Shown in pieces: positions 1 through 11,524 of a DNA stretch of 11,524 bases. The notes beneath the pieces were generated by a model, which did not search any database, was not told the origin of the DNA, and worked only from the letters and a program-made list of their open reading frames with translations. The translations under genes were made by a program, and so were the position numbers. Source of the DNA: a virus (lineage: Duplodnaviria > Heunggongvirae > Uroviricota > Caudoviricetes); the IMG/VR virus record IMGVR_UViG_2534681657_000015, positions 1-11,524 of that record; one strand, 5' to 3'. The first letter of the stretch is position 1. Every line of letters begins with the position of its first letter.

Positions 1-1284
1 TTACTTCTTCGCCTCTGCAACCACTTTACTACCCACGCCGCGGTTATTGTATTCCCACATGCGGTTGTAGTTAGTGTCATTCAGATTGCGCTGTATTTCG
101 TCGTTATCATCTACGCTGCCGGTATTACCCGCAAACGGACGATTAGAGATCACCGCATCGGCCCACGGTTTAGCCGTGTTAAAACCTTCGTTGATGGCGC
201 TATCACGGATCACCACCTGACCGTTGGTATTGGCATCAACATCCAGCGAGCGGCCCAGTTGCGCCACACCATCACCGAAAGCATTGAAACGGCTGTTTAC
301 GGCGAGGAAACCGTAGTAAATGTTGGACAGCGTAGCCGGTGCAAACACATACGCTTCTTGCTGAGTACGTGAGTTCACCACGCGGAATTCGGTGTTATCG
401 AACACCACTGCGCCGCGACCAGAAACGATATCCACATCCCCTTCAATGTAGCTGTTGGTCACCAGCGTACGCGGCTGACGGTTGGTTTCCAGACGGTTCT
501 GCACACCGCTGTTGGTGACAAAGAAGGTGTTCTGACGACCGAGAATGTTAACGTTGTTAATCTGTACCTGGTCACCATCAGTACGCAGTGCCACCGCCGG
601 ATGGTTACCTGCATCTACGCTATCGCCCAGCGTGTTTTCGATGGTCAGATTTTGCAGTTGCAGGCCATTGTTTTGTGACCAGAAGACCGCAGAGCAGAGA
701 ACACCGATACTGTCGCTGCGTTTGCTCTGGCAGCTATCGTACATATACCACGCTGGTTTACCTGGCATATATTTGCCGCGCGGGTTGACGTCGTGACGCC
801 AGTCGGCAGGGCTCATGCCACCATCAAGGGAAAGCCCAATCTTCACATCAATCGGTTTTTCACCTGTACCGTACAGAGTAATTCCACCCGGAGCGGCAGG
901 GACATATACCGTTCCCTGATACTCACCAGGCATCACGGCAATATACTGGCGCTTGTTGGTACGCTTGATAATTGCCGCATCTACCGCCGCCTGAATCGTG
1001 GTATGCGTTACACCTTGAGTGCCCGCCGGGCCGACAACAAAGTCAGGTTGCGCAGGCAGGGTAATCGGGGAAGGATTCCACGCTGCAGCACCTGGTGTCA
1101 GGGATGCAAAATAGTGTTGAGCATCGAAATTCTGCGCTTCTTTTGCCGACAGAATCGGGCGAGAAGAGGTACCAGGCGCGGTTTGATCAGAAGGACGTTG
1201 ATCGGGCGGGGTTGAGCTACAGGCGGTCAGCGTCACGCCAAAAGCCAATGCCAGCGCCAGACGGGAAACTGAAAATGTGTTCAC
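1..1284 (-). CDS. ybhC: Host outer-membrane lipoprotein of the pectinesterase-like family (YbhC-type), complete ORF with signal peptide and lipobox
   Basis: 427-aa ORF; N-terminus MNTFSVSRLALALAFGVTLTAC is a lipoprotein signal peptide with an L-T-A-C lipobox; the body is Gly/Asn-rich and beta-helix-like, typical of pectinesterase-fold proteins. ybhC is the gene I recall flanking E. coli attB-lambda on the gal side, consistent with the adjacent att core. Confidence 0.85.
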   Translation of the reverse strand: MNTFSVSRLALALAFGVTLTACSSTPPDQRPSDQTAPGTSSRPILSAKEAQNFDAQHYFASLTPGAAAWNPSPITLPAQPDFVVGPAGTQGVTHTTIQAAVDAAIIKRTNKRQYIAVMPGEYQGTVYVPAAPGGITLYGTGEKPIDVKIGLSLDGGMSPADWRHDVNPRGKYMPGKPAWYMYDSCQSKRSDSIGVLCSAVFWSQNNGLQLQNLTIENTLGDSVDAGNHPAVALRTDGDQVQINNVNILGRQNTFFVTNSGVQNRLETNRQPRTLVTNSYIEGDVDIVSGRGAVVFDNTEFRVVNSRTQQEAYVFAPATLSNIYYGFLAVNSRFNAFGDGVAQLGRSLDVDANTNGQVVIRDSAINEGFNTAKPWADAVISNRPFAGNTGSVDDNDEIQRNLNDTNYNRMWEYNNRGVGSKVVAEAKK

Positions 1285-1320
1285 AGGTTGCTCCGGGCTA
1301 TGAAATAGAAAAATGAATCC

Positions 1321-1428
1321 GTTGAAGCCTGCTTTTTTATACTAAGTTGGCATTATAAAAAAGCATTGCTTATCAATTTGTTGCAACGAACAGGTCACTA
1401 TCAGTCAAAATAAAATCATTATTTGATT
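1321..1428. other. attL: Prophage attL (B-O-P'): 15-bp lambda core GCTTTTTTATACTAA at 1331-1345 followed by the lambda P' arm with arm-type Int sites (AGGTCACTAT, CAGTCAAAAT)
   Basis: Direct read: gaagcctGCTTTTTTATACTAAgttggcattataaaaaagcattgcttatcaatttgttgcaacgaacaggtcactatcagtcaaaataaaatcattatttg matches the lambda attP P' arm from memory; the left side of the core is bacterial (B arm) sequence; the int stop codon lies inside the P' arm as in lambda. Confidence 0.85.
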
Positions 1429-2489
1429 TCAATTTTGTCCCACTCCCTGCCTCTGTCATCACGATACTGTGATGCCATGGTGTCCGACTTATGCCCGAGA
1501 AGATGTTGAGCAAACTTATCGCTTATCTGCTTCTCATAGAGTCTTGCAGACAAACTGCGCAACTCGTGAAAGGTAGGCGGATCCCCTTCGAAGGAAAGAC
1601 CTGATGCTTTTCGTGCGCGCATAAAATACCTTGATACTGTGCCGGATGAAAGCGGTTCGCGACGAGTAGATGCAATTATGGTTTCTCCGCCAAGAATCTC
1701 TTTGCATTTATCAAGTGTTTCCTTCATTGATATTCCGAGAGCATCAACATGCAATGCTGTTGGGATGGCAATTTTTACGCCTGTTTTGCTTTGCTCGACA
1801 TAAAGATATCCATCTACGATATCAGACCACTTCATTTCGCATAAATCACCAACTCGTTGCCCGGTAACAACAGCCAGTTCCATTGCAAGTCTGAGCCAAC
1901 ATGGTGATGATTCTGCTGCTTGATAAATTTTCAGGTATTCGTCAGCCGTAAGTCTTGATCTCCTTACCTCTGATTTTGCTGCGCGAGTGGCAGCGACAGG
2001 GTTTGTTGTTATATGGCCTTCAGCTATTGCCTCTCGGAATGCATCGCTCAGTGTTGATCTGATTAACTTGGCTGACGCCGCCTTGCCCTCGTCTATGTAT
2101 CCATTGAGCATTGCCGCAATTTCTTTTGTGGTGATGTCTTCAAGTGGAGCATCAGGCAGACCCCTCCTTATTGCTTTAATTTTGCTCATGTAATTTATGA
2201 GTGTCTTCTGCTTGATTCCTCTGCTGGCCAGGATTTTTTCGTAGCGATCAAGCCATGAATGTAACGTAACGGAATTATCACTGTTGATTCTCGCTGTCAG
2301 AGGCTTGTGTTTGTGTCCTGAAAATAACTCAATGTTGGCCTGTATAGCTTCAGTGATTGCGATTCGCCTGTCTCGGCCTAATCCAAACTCTTTACCCGTC
2401 CTTGGGTCCCTGTAGCAGTAATATCCATTGTTTCTTATATAAAGGTTAGGGGGTAAATCCCGGCGCTCATGACTTCGCCTTCTTCCCAT
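1419..2489 (-). CDS. int: Tyrosine site-specific integrase, lambda Int type
   Basis: 356-aa ORF beginning MGRRRSHERRDLPPNLYIRNNGYYCYRDPRTGKEFGLGRDRRIAITEAIQAN, matching lambda Int in length and sequence from memory; C-terminal catalytic region with HELRS...LGH...Y; sits immediately beside attL. Confidence 0.97.
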   Translation of the reverse strand: MGRRRSHERRDLPPNLYIRNNGYYCYRDPRTGKEFGLGRDRRIAITEAIQANIELFSGHKHKPLTARINSDNSVTLHSWLDRYEKILASRGIKQKTLINYMSKIKAIRRGLPDAPLEDITTKEIAAMLNGYIDEGKAASAKLIRSTLSDAFREAIAEGHITTNPVAATRAAKSEVRRSRLTADEYLKIYQAAESSPCWLRLAMELAVVTGQRVGDLCEMKWSDIVDGYLYVEQSKTGVKIAIPTALHVDALGISMKETLDKCKEILGGETIIASTRREPLSSGTVSRYFMRARKASGLSFEGDPPTFHELRSLSARLYEKQISDKFAQHLLGHKSDTMASQYRDDRGREWDKIEIK

Positions 2490-2685
2490 TTCTGATCCTC
2501 TTCAAAAGGCTACCTGTTACTGGTCGATTTAAGTCAACCTTTACCGCTGATTCGTGGAACAGATATTCTCTTCCATCCTTAACCGGAGGAGGGAATATCC
2601 TGCATTCGCGCACCCATCGACGAACTGTTTCAAGGCTTCTTGGGCGTCGCTGGCGAGCGTTCCACTCCTGAAGTGTCAAGTACAT
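2467..2685 (-). CDS. xis: Excisionase, lambda Xis type
   Basis: 72-aa ORF MYLTLQEWNARQRRPRSLETVRRWVRECRIFPPPVKDGREYLFHESAVKVDL; overlaps the int start by 23 nt as in lambda. Confidence 0.95.
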   Translation of the reverse strand: MYLTLQEWNARQRRPRSLETVRRWVRECRIFPPPVKDGREYLFHESAVKVDLNRPVTGSLLKRIRNGKKAKS

Positions 2686-2710
2686 CGCAAAGTCTCCGCA
2701 ATTACACGCA

Positions 2711-2732
2711 AGAAAAAACCGCCATCAGGCGG
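2711..2732 (-). terminator. Candidate intrinsic terminator on the minus strand (stem CCGCC / loop TGAT / GGCGG, then a TTTTTT run), overlapping the stop codon of the upstream 55-aa ORF
   Basis: Plus strand 2711-2732 agaaaaaaccgccatcaggcgg; its reverse complement gives a 5-bp GC stem followed by a U-run in the leftward transcript. Confidence 0.4.
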
Positions 2733-2892
2733 CTTGGTGTTCTTTCAGTTCTTCAATTCGAATATTGGTTACGTCTGCATGTGCTATCTGCGCCCACAGC
2801 ATCCAGTGGTCATAGCAGTCGCTGATGTTCTCGGCTTCGATAACTCTGTTGAATGGTTCTCCATTCCATTCACCTGTGACTCGGAAGTGCAT
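2725..2892 (-). CDS. Small hypothetical phage protein (55 aa), MHFRVTGEWNGEPFNRVIEAENISDCYDHWMLWAQIAHADVTNIRIEELKEHQAA
   Basis: Hand translation of the minus strand; ATG at 2892-2890 preceded by a GGGGA Shine-Dalgarno about 6 nt upstream; position corresponds to a small unnamed ORF I recall just upstream of xis in lambda. Not in the supplied ORF track (below its length cutoff); the overlapping 66-aa track ORF 2784-2984 is in another frame and has no comparable RBS. Confidence 0.45.
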   Translation of the reverse strand: MHFRVTGEWNGEPFNRVIEAENISDCYDHWMLWAQIAHADVTNIRIEELKEHQAA

Positions 2893-3134
2893 TTATCATC
2901 CCCATAAAACAAACCCCGCCGTAGCGAGTTCAGATAAAAGAAATCCTCGTCAGTGCGAGGATGCTGTTCATTGCTGCTATACACTTTTTTGCTCTCAACG
3001 TAAGCGGTAGCCCATTCTGTTGGGTTGGTGCAGTTGCTTTTAGGAAATGCTATTTACCCCTTAAATGTCGGCTGAAAGAGCTAAAATCCATGCAAAAAAT
3101 TTACGCAATTTTGTGTATTATTGTGCAGTAAGTA

Positions 3135-3737
3135 ATGAGCTATTTTCTGCGCAAAAAATGGATGGTAAATTTGTCCGGGTCAGGAAAAATTTTATGGGCG
3201 CTAAACATGAAAAAAGATTCGTATCCTTATTTGATTTGCATGACAGTTTCAGGGCTGATCTTTATTTTCCTTTTCTTCTGGTGGCGGGCAGATATCTACA
3301 GGGTCACGTTTCTTAATCAGAGTATATCCCACTATTACATTCTGTTTAGCATGGGAATAGCTTTTCTGTTATCTCTGTTTTGGGTTAAGAAGGGGATAGT
3401 AAAACAAAGCGGCTGGAAGAGTCTGTCAGCATACCTTAAGGTTTATGCAGGGATGTGCATATTTGCTGGATTTTTTCTGATTATACCCCTTACGACACTA
3501 ACTTATTTTTTGCCTGGAGAGACATCGTCTTATGTTGCACCGTATCGGTATACTTCCGGTAGTTCAAAAAGTTGTTCTGGAGCTGAGGTGGATGACCCCG
3601 ATCTACATGAGAATATTCGCATTTGCTATCCGTATGGCAATTATGAGTACGATAATATTATCTATGTTGAAAAGAAAATTAATATATTAGGTGCGGTAGT
3701 GACATATGCACAGACCGCGCGTGATGATACTGAATGA
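3135..3737 (+). CDS. Hypothetical integral membrane protein (about 177-200 aa) with three predicted TM helices and a Cys-containing soluble C-terminal domain; accessory (moron-like) gene, function unknown
   Basis: Long plus-strand ORF in a clearly AT-rich segment; hydrophobic stretches YLICMTVSGLIFIFLFFWW, YYILFSMGIAFLLSLFWV and GMCIFAGFFLIIPLTTLTYFL; C-terminal ~75 aa hydrophilic with three Cys. Start is uncertain: candidates are 3135 (longest), 3162 and 3207 (MKKDSY..., typical of a membrane protein N-terminus); none has a strong SD. Opposite orientation to the surrounding early-left operon. Confidence 0.6.
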   Translation: MSYFLRKKWMVNLSGSGKILWALNMKKDSYPYLICMTVSGLIFIFLFFWWRADIYRVTFLNQSISHYYILFSMGIAFLLSLFWVKKGIVKQSGWKSLSAYLKVYAGMCIFAGFFLIIPLTTLTYFLPGETSSYVAPYRYTSGSSKSCSGAEVDDPDLHENIRICYPYGNYEYDNIIYVEKKINILGAVVTYAQTARDDTE

Positions 3738-3781
3738 TATAGTATATAGCGGGCAAGTTTTAGTTAATTTATCGAGGTAAT

Positions 3782-3805
3782 ATAATTTACCTCGACTCGT
3801 TTGTT
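3782..3805 (+). terminator. Perfect 9-bp inverted repeat TCGAGGTAA-tataat-TTACCTCGA just downstream of the membrane-protein gene; possible terminator or operator-like palindrome
   Basis: Direct read of 3782-3805; followed by ctcgtttgttc (only moderately T-rich); the loop is the hexamer TATAAT. Confidence 0.3.
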
Positions 3806-3947
3806 CTGGTATTAATATTTCGCTTTACGACCGATTTTTATCTGATGATATCATGCGGTTTTCATATACTGACTTACTGTCTTTTCTCCGTTAGCGATTT
3901 TCTCCTGCTCAGCGATGATTTTATCTTTGGCTTCTAGTTAATTTCGC

Positions 3948-4169
3948 TCACTTCGAACCTCTCTGTTTACTGATAAGCTCCAGATCTTGCTGGCAACTGG
4001 CACAAGTCCGACAACCCTGAACGGCCAGTCGTCTTCGTTCATCTATCGGATCGCCACACTCACAACAATGAGTGGCAGATATAGCCTGGTGGTTCAGGCG
4101 GCGCATTTTTATTGCTGTGTTGCGCTGTAATTCTTCAATTTCTGATGCTGAATCAATTATGTCTGCCAT
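3948..4169 (-). CDS. DksA/TraR-family C4 zinc-finger protein (73 aa), likely RNA-polymerase secondary-channel binder
   Basis: MADIIDSASEIEELQRNTAIKMRRLNHQAISATHCCECGDPIDERRRLAVQGCRTCASCQQDLELISKQ: a CxxC-(17)-CxxC zinc-finger preceded by an acidic, probably coiled-coil N-terminus, the architecture of TraR/DksA-type proteins; size and position fit the lambda Orf73 TraR-like protein as I recall it. Confidence 0.7.
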   Translation of the reverse strand: MADIIDSASEIEELQRNTAIKMRRLNHQAISATHCCECGDPIDERRRLAVQGCRTCASCQQDLELISKQRGSK

Positions 4170-4220
4170 CTTTCATTAATCCCTGAATTGTTGGTTAATA
4201 CGCTTGAGGGTGAATGCGAA

Positions 4221-4247
4221 TAATAAAAAAGGAGCCTGTAGCTCCCT
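4221..4247 (-). terminator. Candidate intrinsic terminator on the minus strand (GGAGC / TACAG / GCTCC followed by TTTTTTATT)
   Basis: Plus strand taataaaaaaggagcctgtagctccct; the reverse complement gives a stem-loop plus U-run between the 71-aa ORF and the TraR-like gene. Confidence 0.35.
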
Positions 4248-4267
4248 GATGATTTTGCTTTTCATGT

Positions 4268-4483
4268 TCACCGTTCCTTAAAGACGCCGTTCAACATGCC
4301 GATCGCCAGGCTTAAATGAGTCGGTGTGAATCCCATCAGCGTTACCGTTTCGCGGTGCTTCTTTAGTACGCTACGGCAAATGTCATCGACGTTTTTATCC
4401 GGAAACTGCTGTCTGGCTTTTTTGATTTCAGAATTAGCCTGACGGGCAATGCTGCGAAGGGCGTTTTCTTGCTGAGGTGTCAT
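4268..4483 (-). CDS. Hypothetical small phage protein (71 aa from MTPQQENALRSIARQANSEIKKARQQ...; the track extends it to 93 aa from an ATG at 4549)
   Basis: Minus-strand ORF; the 4483 start forms an ATGA overlap with the stop of an upstream 27-aa micro-ORF, suggesting translational coupling; the 4549 start has no SD and is immediately preceded by an in-frame stop. Confidence 0.45.
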   Translation of the reverse strand: MTPQQENALRSIARQANSEIKKARQQFPDKNVDDICRSVLKKHRETVTLMGFTPTHLSLAIGMLNGVFKER

Positions 4484-7018: not shown

Positions 7019-7090
7019 GGTGTGCTCCTTATTTATACATAACGAAAAACGCCTCGAGTGAAGCGTTATTGGTATGCGGTAACGCCGCGC

Positions 7091-7479: not shown

Positions 7480-7506
7480 AAAAAATCGCCCTCACATTGG
7501 AGGGCA
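7480..7506 (-). terminator. Candidate intrinsic terminator on the minus strand (GCCCTC / CAATGT / GAGGGC then GATTTTTTAT), just upstream of ea10
   Basis: Plus strand 7480-7506 taaaaaatcgccctcacattggagggc; the reverse complement gives a 6-bp GC-rich stem and a U-run; position is compatible with a tL-type terminator that N antitermination would read through. Confidence 0.4.
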
Positions 7507-7719
7507 AAGAAGATTTCCAATAATCAGAACAAGTCGGCTCCTGTTTAGTTACGAGCGACATTGCTCAGTGTATTCACTCGTTGGAATGAATACACAGTGC
7601 AGTGTTTATTAGTATGCCTGTCTTTTAACCACATCAGGCTCGGTGGTTCTCGTGTACCCCTACAGCGAGAAATCGGATAAACTCTATTCACCCCTACAGA
7701 GAGCAAAAGAGAAACGCCG

Positions 7720-8317: not shown

Positions 8318-8590
8318 TCATCTCGCCGTCAGTTGTTTTGATTTCCGGTAGCCTGCCGCGTAAATGGCTACGTTTGGCAGGCAAATACTTCCACTGCATT
8401 CATCTGCCTTCTTGCAGCGAAGGCTTCCGAGTGATGCTGCTTTGTCTGCTCTGACGCAACCAGAGAGCTTTAGCGCAATTTTTCGCGCCAGTCGCTGTTC
8501 TTGCATTGCCTGCTCACGTTGAGCCTGTCTGCGTGCTCTGCGGCGATTTCTGGCGTTATTGTCAGCCAGATATGTAATGACTACTGCCAT
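8318..8590 (-). CDS. N: N-family transcription antiterminator (90 aa) with an N-terminal arginine-rich motif (NARNRRRARRQAQREQ) and a P22 gp24/phage-21-type C-terminus
   Basis: First gene downstream of the PL/nutL region on the minus strand; N-terminal arginine-rich motif; the C-terminal tail LPNVAIYAAGYRKSKQLTAR resembles the end of P22-type N proteins as I recall them; clearly not lambda N. Confidence 0.7.
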   Translation of the reverse strand: MAVVITYLADNNARNRRRARRQAQREQAMQEQRLARKIALKLSGCVRADKAASLGSLRCKKADECSGSICLPNVAIYAAGYRKSKQLTAR

Positions 8591-8699
8591 GTTGACCTCC
8601 GATGATTAACTTTGGCGGTGACGCGCCGGGTGCTTATCTTCCGGTTGCCGTCGTGCAGCTGCACTTCACGTCACCCCAAAGCCAACTACTCTTTGGTTC

Positions 8700-8740
8700 C
8701 CGCATTTCGGCGGGACAATCCCATCAATGTTAAAGAGCCT
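8700..8740 (-). promoter_or_regulatory. nutL: nutL: boxA (GCTCTTTAACA, 8729-8739 on the minus strand) and boxB hairpin (UCCCGCCGAAAUGCGGGA, 8700-8717)
   Basis: Minus-strand read aggCTCTTTAACAttgatgggattgTCCCGCCGAAATGCGGGAacc between PL and N; the identical boxA/boxB pair recurs downstream of cro on the plus strand. Confidence 0.55.
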
Positions 8741-8770
8741 GCCAATCTGTTCCGTTTGGCTACCAGCGTC

Positions 8771-8850
8771 CTGCCGATGACTTAAATTTAAGATTTCTTT
8801 AACTATTGGTCAAGAGTGTTTTTGAAGAAAACTTAAATTTTGTTGCGAAG
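8771..8850 (-). promoter_or_regulatory. OL/PL region: leftward promoter (-35 TTGACC at 8798-8803, -10 TAAATT at 8775-8780, 17-bp spacer) overlapping P22-type TTAAG...CTTAA operator half-sites
   Basis: Direct read of the reverse complement TTGACCaatagttaaagaaatctTAAATT; operator-like atttaagatttctttaa resembles the OR site atttaagtgttctttaat. Confidence 0.5.
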
Positions 8851-8902: not shown

Positions 8903-9553
8903 TTATGGAAGGTTTGCTATTTTTGCATCGACAACTACACCGATGATTTTGCAGTTCCCGTTGATCTCAATCATCGGATATTGTGGGTTAAGTGGTTTTA
9001 GAAACCTTCTGCCAGCATCAATAACTAACTTCTTGAAAGTTGCCTCGTTTTCTCCTTCGAGCTTTGCCACTACCAGCTTCCCATTACGAGGTTCTACTTC
9101 AGGATCGACTAGTATTATCATCCCTTCCGGGATGCTAAGCCCGGCTGGAGCCGTCATCGAATCACCCTTTACGTCCAGCCAAAACGAATCTTCTGAACAA
9201 TCTACGGTTGTATCGTACCAGTTATCTATTGCACGCTTATGATATGGCTCTACAGCTTCCATCCAACATCCTGCGCTTACCCAACTAATTAGAGGATACG
9301 AACCTCTTGGATCATGCCTGCTGTGATAGGCAATGTTTGAAAGACTATCTTCTCCTTTCAACAAGTAATCAGGGGAGCACTGTAAAGCCTTGGCTAAAGC
9401 CAATAGGTTTTCGCCATTGGGCTCAGTTTCAGAACGCTCCCATTGGGAAATAGCAACATTAGACACGCCAACCATCTTGCCGAGGGCAGCCTGCCTAATC
9501 TTAAGTTCTTTTCTGCGAGCGCGAATACGCTCACCCATCAGTTGTGTATTCAT
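8903..9553 (-). CDS. c2: Phage repressor, P22 C2 type (lambda CI family): N-terminal HTH DNA-binding domain plus C-terminal LexA-like autocleavage domain
   Basis: 216-aa ORF MNTQLMGERIRARRKELKIRQAALGKMVGVSNVAISQWERSETEPNGENLLALAKALQCSPDYLL..., near-identical to P22 C2 from memory; Ala-Gly cleavage site (VSAGCW) and a Ser/Lys catalytic pair (GDSM ... K) are present. Confidence 0.95.
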   Translation of the reverse strand: MNTQLMGERIRARRKELKIRQAALGKMVGVSNVAISQWERSETEPNGENLLALAKALQCSPDYLLKGEDSLSNIAYHSRHDPRGSYPLISWVSAGCWMEAVEPYHKRAIDNWYDTTVDCSEDSFWLDVKGDSMTAPAGLSIPEGMIILVDPEVEPRNGKLVVAKLEGENEATFKKLVIDAGRRFLKPLNPQYPMIEINGNCKIIGVVVDAKIANLP

Positions 9554-9554
9554 A

Positions 9555-9621
9555 GTTAAGACATCTTAAATAAACTTGACTTAAGATTCCTTTGATAGAT
9601 AATTTAAGTGTTCTTTAATTT
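9555..9621. promoter_or_regulatory. OR operator cluster with divergent promoters: three P22-type operators (agTTAAGAcaTCTTAAat, acTTAAGAttcCTTTgat, atTTAAGTgtTCTTTAAt); PR -35 TTGACT (9576-9581) and -10 GATAAT (9598-9603)
   Basis: Direct read of the 80-bp intergenic region between the divergent c2 and cro genes. Confidence 0.6.
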
Positions 9622-9633
9622 CGGGGCGAGTCT

Positions 9634-9819
9634 ATGTACAAGAAAGATGTTATCGACCACTTCGGAACCCAGCGTGCGGTAGCTAAAGCGTTAGGCATTA
9701 GCGATGCAGCAGTCTCTCAGTGGAAGGAAGTCATCCCAGAGAAAGACGCCTATCGACTGGAAGTCGTTACAGCTGGCGCCCTGAAGTATCAAGAAAGTGC
9801 TTATCGCAAAGCGGCATAA
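9634..9819 (+). CDS. cro: Cro repressor, P22 type (61 aa)
   Basis: MYKKDVIDHFGTQRAVAKALGISDAAVSQWKEVIPEKDAYRLEVVTAGALKYQESAYRKAA, P22 Cro-like, with HTH QRAVAKALGISDAAVSQW. Confidence 0.9.
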   Translation: MYKKDVIDHFGTQRAVAKALGISDAAVSQWKEVIPEKDAYRLEVVTAGALKYQESAYRKAA

Positions 9820-9825
9820 GCAAAT

Positions 9826-9869
9826 TGCTCTTTAACAGTCATGGTCCTTATTCCCGCCGAAATGCGGGA
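9826..9869 (+). promoter_or_regulatory. nutR: nutR: boxA (GCTCTTTAACA, 9827-9837) and boxB hairpin (UCCCGCCGAAAUGCGGGA, 9852-9869)
   Basis: Plus strand ttGCTCTTTAACAgtcatggtccttatTCCCGCCGAAATGCGGGAat just downstream of cro; same elements as nutL in the opposite orientation. Confidence 0.55.
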
Positions 9870-9927
9870 ATACAACGCGCATCAGTTGGTGCGTATAACT
9901 TCTTATTTGTTAAGGAAATACTTACAT

Positions 9928-10206
9928 ATGCAACTTACAAGTACTCGCAAGAAAGCGAATGCAATCACAAGCAACATCCTGAATCGAATTGCTGTACGTG
10001 GTCAGCGAAAGGTTGCTGATGCATTAGGGATTAATGAATCGCAAATTTCGCGATGGAAAGACAGCTTTATCCCAAAGATGGCCATGCTTCTGGCTGTGCT
10101 GGAGTGGGGTGTTGAAGACGAGGAATTAGCAAAGCTAGCAAAGAAAGTAGCCATGGTGCTGACAAAAGAAAAGCCTCAAGACTGCTGCAACAGTTTTGAG
10201 GCCTGA
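9928..10206 (+). CDS. c1: CII-family transcriptional activator, P22 C1 type (92 aa)
   Basis: Internal start of the 121-aa track ORF: MQLTSTRKKANAITSNILNRIAVRGQRKVADALGINESQISRWKDSFIPKMAMLLAVLEWG..., preceded by an AAGGA SD at 9912-9916; the 9841 start would place nutR inside the coding region. Confidence 0.85.
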   Translation: MQLTSTRKKANAITSNILNRIAVRGQRKVADALGINESQISRWKDSFIPKMAMLLAVLEWGVEDEELAKLAKKVAMVLTKEKPQDCCNSFEA

Positions 10207-10240: not shown

Positions 10241-10268
10241 ATGACAAATACAGCAAAAATACTCAACT
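10241..10268 (+). pseudogene. O: 5' fragment of the replication initiator gene O (MTNTAKILNL...), interrupted after about 9 codons by the IS insertion
   Basis: AGGAG SD at 10231-10235 then atgacaaatacagcaaaaatactcaacttg = MTNTAKILNL, the N-terminus of lambda O (MTNTAKILNFGR...) from memory; the reading frame is broken at 10269 where the IS terminal repeat (TGAACCGCCCCGGG...) begins. Confidence 0.7.
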
Positions 10269-10322
10269 TGAACCGCCCCGGGAATCCTGGAGACTAAACT
10301 TCCTGAGAAAGAGGTAAACAGG

Positions 10323-10649
10323 ATGACTAAAAATACTCGTTTTTCCCCCGAAGTCCGTCAACGGGCAGTCCGTATGGTTCTGGAAAGTCAGGGCGAATAT
10401 GACTCACAATGGGCGACAATTTGTTCCATTGCTCCAAAGACTGGCTGTACGCCGGAGACTCTGCGTGTCTGGGTTCGCCAGCATGAGCGGGATACCGGGG
10501 GCGGTGATGGAGGGCTCACCACCGCTGAACGTCAGCGTCTGAAAGAGCTGGAGCGTGAAAATCGTGAACTGCGCCGCAGTAACGATATTCTTCGCCAGGC
10601 TTCCGCTTATTTTGCGAAGGCGGAGTTCGACCGCCTCTGGAAAAAATGA
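10323..10649 (+). CDS. IS3-family transposase OrfA (HTH / leucine-zipper DNA-binding subunit), 108 aa
   Basis: [60 protein letters not shown]...[36 protein letters not shown]. Confidence 0.9.
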
Positions 10650-11524
10650 TGCCACTGCTGGATAAGCTGCGTGAGCAGTACGGGGTCGGACCGCTATGCA
10701 GCGAACTGCATATTGCCCCGTCAACGTATTACCACTGTCAGCAACAGCGACATCATCCGGATAAACGCAGTGCCCGTGCGCAGCGCGATAACTGGCTGAA
10801 GAAAGAGATACAGCGCGTATACGATGAAAATCACAAGGTATACGGTGTGCGTAAAGTCTGGCGTCAGTTGTTACGGGAAGGTATCAGAGTGGCCAGATGC
10901 ACTGTGGCACGTCTCATGGCGGTTATGGGACTTGCCGGTGTTCTCCGGGGTAAAAAGGTCCGTACGACCATCAGCCGGAAAGCCGTTGCCGCAGGCGACC
11001 GCGTAAACCGTCAGTTCGTGGCAGAACGACCTGACCAGCTGTGGGTGGCTGATTTTACTTACGTCAGCACATGGCGGGGCTTCGTCTATGTGGCGTTCAT
11101 CATTGATGTGTTTGCCGGATACATCGTGGGGTGGCGGGTCTCATCGTCCATGGAAACGACATTCGTGCTGGATGCACTGGAGCAGGCGTTATGGGCCCGT
11201 CGACCGTCCGGCACGGTCCATCACAGTGATAAAGGTTCTCAGTATGTATCGCTGGCCTACACACAGCGGCTTAAGGAAGCCGGATTACTGGCATCAACAG
11301 GAAGTACAGGCGACTCGTATGACAACGCGATGGCGGAGAGCATCAATGGTCTTTACAAAGCGGAGGTAATACACCGTAAGAGCTGGAAAAACCGTGCAGA
11401 AGTAGAACTGGCCACACTCACGTGGGTGGACTGGTATAACAATCGACGATTGCTGGAAAGGCTGGGCCATACTCCTCCGGCAGAAGCAGAAAAAGCTTAT
11501 TATGCTTCCATCGGAAACGATGAT
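10646..11524 (+). CDS. IS3-family transposase OrfB (DDE/RNase-H-fold catalytic domain), -1 frame relative to OrfA, 3' end off the window
   Basis: Hand translation from the ATG at 10646 gives [29 protein letters not shown]...[38 protein letters not shown]...[11 protein letters not shown]...[20 protein letters not shown]..., an open frame to the window end containing integrase-core motifs (D...D...E). Absent from the ORF track, presumably because no stop codon lies inside the window. Confidence 0.85.

Follow-up and report, generated by a model that had tools for sequence, protein, structure and literature searches.

A probable HK620-type early antitermination module in the immunity region of a lambdoid prophage

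Gene content and organization of the early control region

The window, i.e., the whole stretch of 11,524 nucleotides (11.5 kb) that was analyzed in the current study, represents the left arm and the immunity region of a lambdoid prophage. A pectinesterase-family host gene is located at its left end (positions 1-1284) and followed by lambda-type int, xis, exo (YqaJ), bet (RecT), gam and kil. Further right lie the gene for a DUF2528 protein, sieB on the opposite strand and the N open reading frame (ORF), and the rightmost part harbors a P22 c2-type repressor, a P22-type cro, a cII/c1-type activator and an IS3-family element. Near-identical DNA (99.9%) recurs in numerous complete genomes of E. 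coli, among them several ETEC isolates.

Lambda-type int and xis directly adjoin the pectinesterase-family host gene (window 1-2700). This gene, which we take to resemble ybhC, would fit an integration at the lambda attachment site; if that site was used, the left attachment site is presumably to be expected at about 1290-1420. A 200-aa ORF on the plus strand (3135-3737), which lies between xis and a dksA/traR-type zinc-finger gene, is without a Pfam match. Judged by eye, it is rich in hydrophobic stretches and may be a candidate prophage cargo (moron) membrane protein.

The early control region comprises the following genes and features:

7048-7067, minus strand: second candidate tL terminator (terminator scan)
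7486-7507, minus strand: intrinsic-terminator-like hairpin with an 8-bp stem, five GC pairs and a TTTTTTAT tail, in the pL operon downstream of N (terminator scan)
8318-8590, minus strand: N antiterminator gene, 90 aa (ORF list, ATG start, Pfam match)
8596-8600, minus strand: Shine-Dalgarno sequence GGAGG, 5 nt upstream of the N start codon (read from the sequence)
8606-8686, minus strand: long, nearly perfect N-leader hairpin (MFE and centroid folds of 8575-8780, z = -2.1)
8698-8715, minus strand: nutL boxB, UCCCGC-CGAAAU-GCGGGA (exact match, folds, same as in the annotated HK620 nutL)
8728-8738, minus strand: nutL boxA, GCUCUUUAACA, with a 12-nt spacer to boxB (identical in HK620 nutL)
8785-8813, minus strand: pL-like promoter, TTGACC, 17 nt, TAAATT (consensus scan 9/12, position as HK620 pL; a candidate by its consensus match)
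8903-9553, minus strand: repressor of the P22 c2 type (HTH_3 and Peptidase_S24; Pfam, P22-like matches), located between both nut sites
9576-9603, plus strand: pR-like promoter before cro, TTGACT, 16 nt, GATAAT (consensus scan 10/12, the best match of the region)
9634-9819, plus strand: cro (P22_Cro family, Pfam E=8.7e-28)
9827-9837, plus strand: nutR boxA, GCUCUUUAACA, 8 nt past the cro stop codon, with a 14-nt spacer to boxB (as in HK620 nutR)
9852-9869, plus strand: nutR boxB, same as nutL boxB, stem extendable to 9 bp (9849-9872)
9877-9894, plus strand: tR1-like hairpin with a 7-bp stem, followed by a U-rich tract (fold; HK620 annotates tR1 at the corresponding place)
9928-10206, plus strand: cII/P22 c1-type activator (Pfam Phage_CII, E=2.4e-44), the first gene past nutR and tR1

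N is the first gene in the leftward early operon beside the immunity region, with the order pL-like promoter, nutL and N; the promoter-like sequence is located about 40-45 nt upstream of the nutL boxA. On the rightward transcript, the tR1-like hairpin at 9877-9894 was not called by the simple terminator scan and would represent the first candidate terminator for N to override.

The hairpin at 8606-8686 sits between nutL and the ribosome-binding site of N. The N-leader stem of lambda is processed by RNase III and controls N translation, and the hairpin of the window may be its counterpart. An additional 200-470 bp separate nutL from the start of N in HK140, in CUS-3 and in about 14 loci of IMG/VR, which results in a variable nutL-to-N distance; in HK140 the extra DNA includes a small annotated ORF.

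An intact module in a probably defective prophage

The IS3-family element starts at about 10270 (region 10241-11524), harbors orfA at 10323-10649 (HTH_Tnp_1) and shares 99.4% identity with elements labelled "IS3 family transposase" that occur on thousands of plasmids. The gene that it disrupts, located about 400 bp downstream of nutR, is a lambda-O-like replication gene, which is broken off after MTNTAKILN (codon 9-10), and the position of the element inside this gene indicates that the prophage is probably replication-defective, with an intact N/nut module. This interruption would fit a scenario in which the module is a relic that has remained intact yet does not act in a productive lytic cycle. 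We consider the scenario rather unlikely, because N has an intact ORF, the two nut sites and the two promoter-like sites are undamaged, as are cI, cro and cII, and because exactly the same N protein is found on 595 public contigs (491-member cluster), where it is mostly labelled "hypothetical protein". It concerns the prophage that carries the module and not the nature of the module itself, and is hence compatible with the HK620-type antitermination module proposed below.

A mosaic N protein

The N-like protein of the original prediction corresponds to the ORF at 8318-8590. Its translation matches the Pfam family PF25694 (N_peptide) over residues 11-90 with 58.7 bits (cut-off 27.9 bits, E=8.8e-16), thus confirming at the sequence level a genuine phage N antitermination gene and member of the N family. 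A PDB search with the protein retrieved no match from a library of chains of at least 20 residues; N proteins are intrinsically disordered until they are bound.

We aligned the N protein of the window with those of HK620, CUS-3, phage 21, HK629, P22 and lambda. Its arginine-rich motif (ARM) comprises residues 11-30 approximately (NNARNRRRARRQAQREQAMQ; residues 9-30, ADNNARNRRRARRQAQREQAMQ), contains seven arginines within residues 14-25 and is in register with the ARMs of phage 21, P22 and lambda. Identity over residues 11-30 amounts to 7/20 with lambda, 6/20 with P22 and 5/20 with phage 21 in the per-module alignment, and the claim that this motif differs from all three, for which the alignment had been proposed as a check, is thereby borne out. 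The middle part (residues 34-62) is completely identical to phage 21 N (29/29). In the tail (residues 63-90), 18 of 28 positions are identical to P22 and 8 of 28 to phage 21, and the last 22-24 residues match the N of numerous Stx phages at 92-96% identity. The former description of the tail as P22/21-like accordingly holds for P22, to which the Stx phages can be added, but not for phage 21, whose identity resides in the middle part. As judged from this alignment, the N protein is a three-module mosaic of an HK620-type ARM, a phage 21 middle and a P22/Stx-phage-like tail.

Two identical nut sites

A nut site composed of boxA and boxB is present on both early transcripts, and boxA corresponds to the full consensus GCUCUUUAACA. 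The window contains exactly two copies of the boxB 18-mer TCCCGCCGAAATGCGGGA (8698-8715, minus strand; 9852-9869, plus strand) and exactly two copies of boxA GCTCTTTAACA (8728-8738, minus strand; 9827-9837, plus strand), just as had been proposed for nutL and nutR. Both predicted locations proved correct apart from the start of the nutL boxB, which is 8698 instead of 8700. None of 200 shuffled sequences contained any match to the 18-mer, even with up to two mismatches allowed. The chance level of boxA is higher, with a mean of 0.24 expected matches and at least two matches in 8 of the 200 shuffles.

The proposed hairpin was recovered by folding. The 18-mer forms a 6-bp stem with the 6-nt loop CGAAAU (-9.7 kcal/mol, z = -2.9), and the hairpin is retained upon folding of the 206-nt pL leader (8575-8780) and of the 121-nt segment behind cro. 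The nutL context yields an unexceptional simple fold (z = -0.55). A search of Rfam retrieved no matching family (best E-value 0.09, an unrelated sRNA). Covariation in the boxB stem was looked for among the copies of the census described below and was absent, since every copy is identical; the invariance of the HK620-type boxB in all copies seen means that its stem lacks a compensatory change that would prove the pairing within this class.

Relationship to previously described N/boxB systems

The closest equivalent is the module of phage HK620. The two N proteins are 96% identical and differ by four residues (A2T, N11D, L57I and D63E in HK620), the ARM is shared at 19/20 positions and boxB at 18/18 positions at both sites, and boxA and the layout are the same. 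The window thus belongs to the HK620-type N/nut set on account of its ARM and of the boxB shared by nutL and nutR. Differences reside in the surroundings: HK620 carries its own cI immunity, whereas the immunity region of the window is P22 c2-like and its prophage contains lambda int/xis and adjoins the pectinesterase-family gene at the left end of the window. The GenBank record of HK620 (AF335538/NC_002730, 2001) annotates N, nutL ("putative N-utilization leftward") and nutR, and its two nut sites contain the exact boxA of the window, a near-identical spacer and the same 18-nt boxB. The genome paper of HK620 is reportedly that of Clark et al. 2001 (J Mol Biol 311:657). Given this annotation, the set of N, nutL and nutR does not represent a new sequence class. 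The same 5' end of N together with nutL is also present in HK140, HK630, CUS-3, mEpX2, ECP1, JEP4, N7, HF4s, IME10, Gally and some Stx phages. We are therefore confident that the window harbors the early antitermination module of a lambdoid prophage of the HK620 type, a known and annotated element and not a new one.

The similarity to phage 21 is pronounced outside the ARM and the boxB sequence. In addition to the identical residues 34-62 of N, the length and register of the ARM and the boxA are the same, the leader DNA is about 74% identical, and the boxB loop also comprises 6 nt and starts with C. In contrast, phage 21 harbors a different ARM (GTAKSRYKARRAELIAERR, 5/20), the loop CUAACC instead of CGAAAU, another stem and another tail. 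The window accordingly falls outside the N/boxB specificity class of phage 21, for which Cilley and Williamson are said to have determined the NMR structure 1NYB in 2003.

The P22 protein gp24 (N) shares a similar N-terminus (MTVITY versus M(A/T)VVITY in the window type) and the related tail (18/28), and the repressor, cro and cII of the window are all of the P22 type. The P22 nutR boxB CCGC-CGACAAC-GCGG and the corresponding CCGC-CGAAAU-GCGG of the window agree in the stem and in the unpaired C before G. The P22 ARM (GNAKTRRHERRRKLAIER) is identical at 6/20 positions, its histidine is replaced by arginine in the window, and the GACAA pentaloop contains a looped-out C that is absent from the window loop. 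The P22 specificity class (NMR structure 1A4T, reportedly by Cai et al. 1998) is hence also distinct from the pair investigated here.

Lambda and the window have in common an arginine-rich helix with an RRR-x-RR core (RRRERR in lambda, RRRARR in the window and RRHERR in P22), a boxB loop beginning with GAAA and the same operon positions. They differ in the ARM (7/20 identical), in the position of lambda Trp18, which is Ala in the window, and in the rest of the protein, which is unrelated in sequence. In the lambda boxB, a U-A pair closes a pentaloop (GAAAA or GAAGA), and the lambda boxA is weaker (CGCTCTTA). Thus, the window does not belong to the lambda class either, whose N in complex with boxB is reportedly the subject of Legault et al. 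1998.

A further N class exhibits the ARM GTAASRRRARRANLQ; one of its loci is located on a 60,942-bp IMG/VR contig. It shares the RRRARR core and the tail with the window but has a different protein middle. Its boxB contains a GAAA tetraloop without an extra base that is closed by U-A, whereas the window loop is flanked by C and U. In this class, a G-C pair in the stem of the nutL boxB (GUGGCU-GAAA-AGCCAG) is replaced by a compensatory C-G pair in the nutR boxB (GUCGCU-GAAA-AGCGAG), which provides real covariation support for a boxB of the GAAA-loop kind. In this Stx-phage-like class, boxA is followed by two hairpins, the second of which is boxB.

The module of the window is thus set apart in sequence from the lambda, P22 and phage 21 modules, and the question of prior characterization that was raised in the original prediction is answered by the identical set already annotated in HK620.

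Coupling of ARM and boxB in natural recombinants

Natural recombinants that combine the modules of N in different ways are informative about the relationship between ARM and boxB. The N protein of CUS-3 exhibits the HK620-type ARM on a phage 21-type tail, and the HK620-type boxB is present at both nut sites. The reciprocal case is HK629, whose N protein comprises the ARM of phage 21 on the tail of the window N; it carries phage 21 boxBs (left CUCAAC-CUAACC-GUUGAG, right CACCU-CUAACA-GGGUG) behind the same boxA as the window.

Our census comprised 80 distinct IMG/VR loci that share the N body of the window, with the following composition:

HK620-type ARM, 73 loci: boxB of the window on both sides in 68
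HK620-type ARM: nutL only, within the DNA fetched, in 2
HK620-type ARM: neither nut site nearby in 3
Phage 21-type ARM, 7 loci: phage 21 boxBs on both sides in all 7

Not a single discordant pair of ARM and boxB was found among the 80 loci. A scan of species-representative genomes with one genome per species provided ten loci. Therein, a P22 ARM is combined with GACAA in E. albertii, a phage 21 ARM with CUAACC in the loci labelled Shimwellia and Oxalobacter (metagenome bin), and the HK620-type ARM pairs with CGAAAU. The HK620-type ARM is strictly coupled to its boxB in natural recombinants.

The two nut sites differ in what they reveal about this coupling. In most loci nutL is located about 110 nt from the ARM codons (a few hundred nt more in some, such as HK140 and CUS-3), and due to this proximity its co-segregation could simply reflect linkage. 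Only the result for nutR, which is located 1.1-1.7 kb away and continues to match in the presence of at least four unrelated types of repressor (238, 216, 235 and 213 aa), speaks for selection. The earlier view of real nut sites and a co-evolved N/boxB pair is thus supported by the co-segregation of ARM and boxB in natural recombinants as well as across at least four immunity modules.

A separate observation was made in mEp213 (IMG/VR copy, 2217-4273), which contains tandem N genes. The first one encodes a lambda-type N with lambda nutL and nutR. An intact HK620-type N is located about 1.15 kb downstream, and its own leader is present. A single boxB-like sequence is present in its vicinity (3625, GCCCTCCGAAATGCGGGA), the stem of which is broken by two changes, and the second N looks like an orphan that lacks a cognate nut site.

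Antitermination and recognition of the boxB loop

Based on homology with lambda, P22 and phage 21, the nascent RNAs would carry boxA and then the boxB hairpin once pL and pR have fired. The boxA sequence GCUCUUUAACA would recruit NusB and NusE-S10, the N-terminal arginine-rich helix of N would bind boxB on the nascent RNA, and the phage 21-identical middle together with the P22-like tail would engage NusA and the RNA polymerase. The polymerase modified in this way would read through tR1 and the tL terminators, for which 7486-7507 and 7048-7067 on the minus strand are the candidates.

The boxB structures of the relatives provide a guide to the loop. In phage 21, the CUAACC hexaloop forms a GNRA-like UMAC motif with a non-canonical C-C pair at its flanks, and in P22 the GACAA pentaloop adopts a GNRA fold, from which the C is looped out onto a His and an Arg of the peptide (PMC12550061). 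In the light of these loop structures, and with the same stem and unpaired C in the P22 nutR boxB, we read the window loop as C[GAAA]U, i.e., a putative true GNRA tetraloop that is flanked by a C·U pair and has no looped-out base. Such a loop would be comparable to the phage 21 hexaloop, C[UAAC]C, with its flanking C-C pair, and would represent a fourth variation on the GNRA-like boxB theme. The replacement of the P22 His by Arg and of lambda Trp18 by Ala in the N protein of the window would suit a loop in which the peptide finds no additional base.

The HK620-type pair appears to form a specificity class apart from lambda, P22 and phage 21. We tentatively regard it as quite possible that this pair represents a fourth, functionally orthogonal way in which an arginine-rich helix reads boxB, namely via a C·U-flanked GAAA tetraloop without a looped-out base.

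The alternative is that the same machinery operates without a separate specificity, i.e., that the GNRA-capable loop cross-reacts with the P22 or lambda set and that the differences reflect neutral drift in a tolerant interface. Such a cross-reaction would be in agreement with the identity of the boxB stem and the first loop base to the P22 nutR boxB, with the resemblance of the ARM core RRRARR to those of lambda and P22, and with the work of Cocozaki et al. 2008 (cited in PMC8022706), whose title states that the boxB requirements of P22 overlap with those of lambda. We nevertheless regard it as unlikely, because none of the 80 loci mixes the HK620-type ARM with another boxB, because the identity of the ARM to P22 and lambda is only 6-7/20, and because other residues occupy the positions of lambda Trp18 and of the P22 His in contact with the looped-out C, and the loop is without an extra base.

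It is very improbable that the repeated 18-mer is not the target of N but a recombination linker, an RNase III/Rho-related signal or a terminator whose pairing with the ARM results from linkage only: CUS-3 annotates the interval from N to cI as boundary sequence (feature bsq5, Clark and co-workers), so that the DNA of the nut region could stay constant for recombinational reasons, and the invariant 18-mer without covariation and the inconspicuous fold of the nutL context would agree with this notion, but the hairpin follows a consensus boxA by 12-14 nt on both early transcripts as in lambda, P22 and phage 21, lacks a T-run behind it, changes whenever the ARM changes while the neighboring boxA is constant, and is still matched at nutR across four immunity types.

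Implications for the diversity of N/boxB pairs

The value of the module as a discovery is small, given that the set has been annotated in HK620 since 2001 and is abundant in E. coli prophages. In the openly accessible literature we found no experimental work on the N/boxB specificity of the HK620 type, no paper that prints either the boxB or the ARM string and none that couples HK620 with nut sites. The boxB structure papers accessible there cover lambda, P22 and phage 21 only, and it is for these three N-boxB pairs that solved structures appear in them. Natural genomes contain more classes of ARM and boxB, including the HK620-type and the Stx-phage-like one, each of which exhibits a clean co-segregation of peptide and RNA.

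The looped-out base of the lambda boxB contributes to the engagement of NusA. If the proposed reading of the HK620-type loop is true, a boxB without a looped-out base would show whether the lambda-type NusA contact is dispensable, and an orthogonal peptide-RNA tether would be added to the toolkit of lambda, P22 and phage 21.
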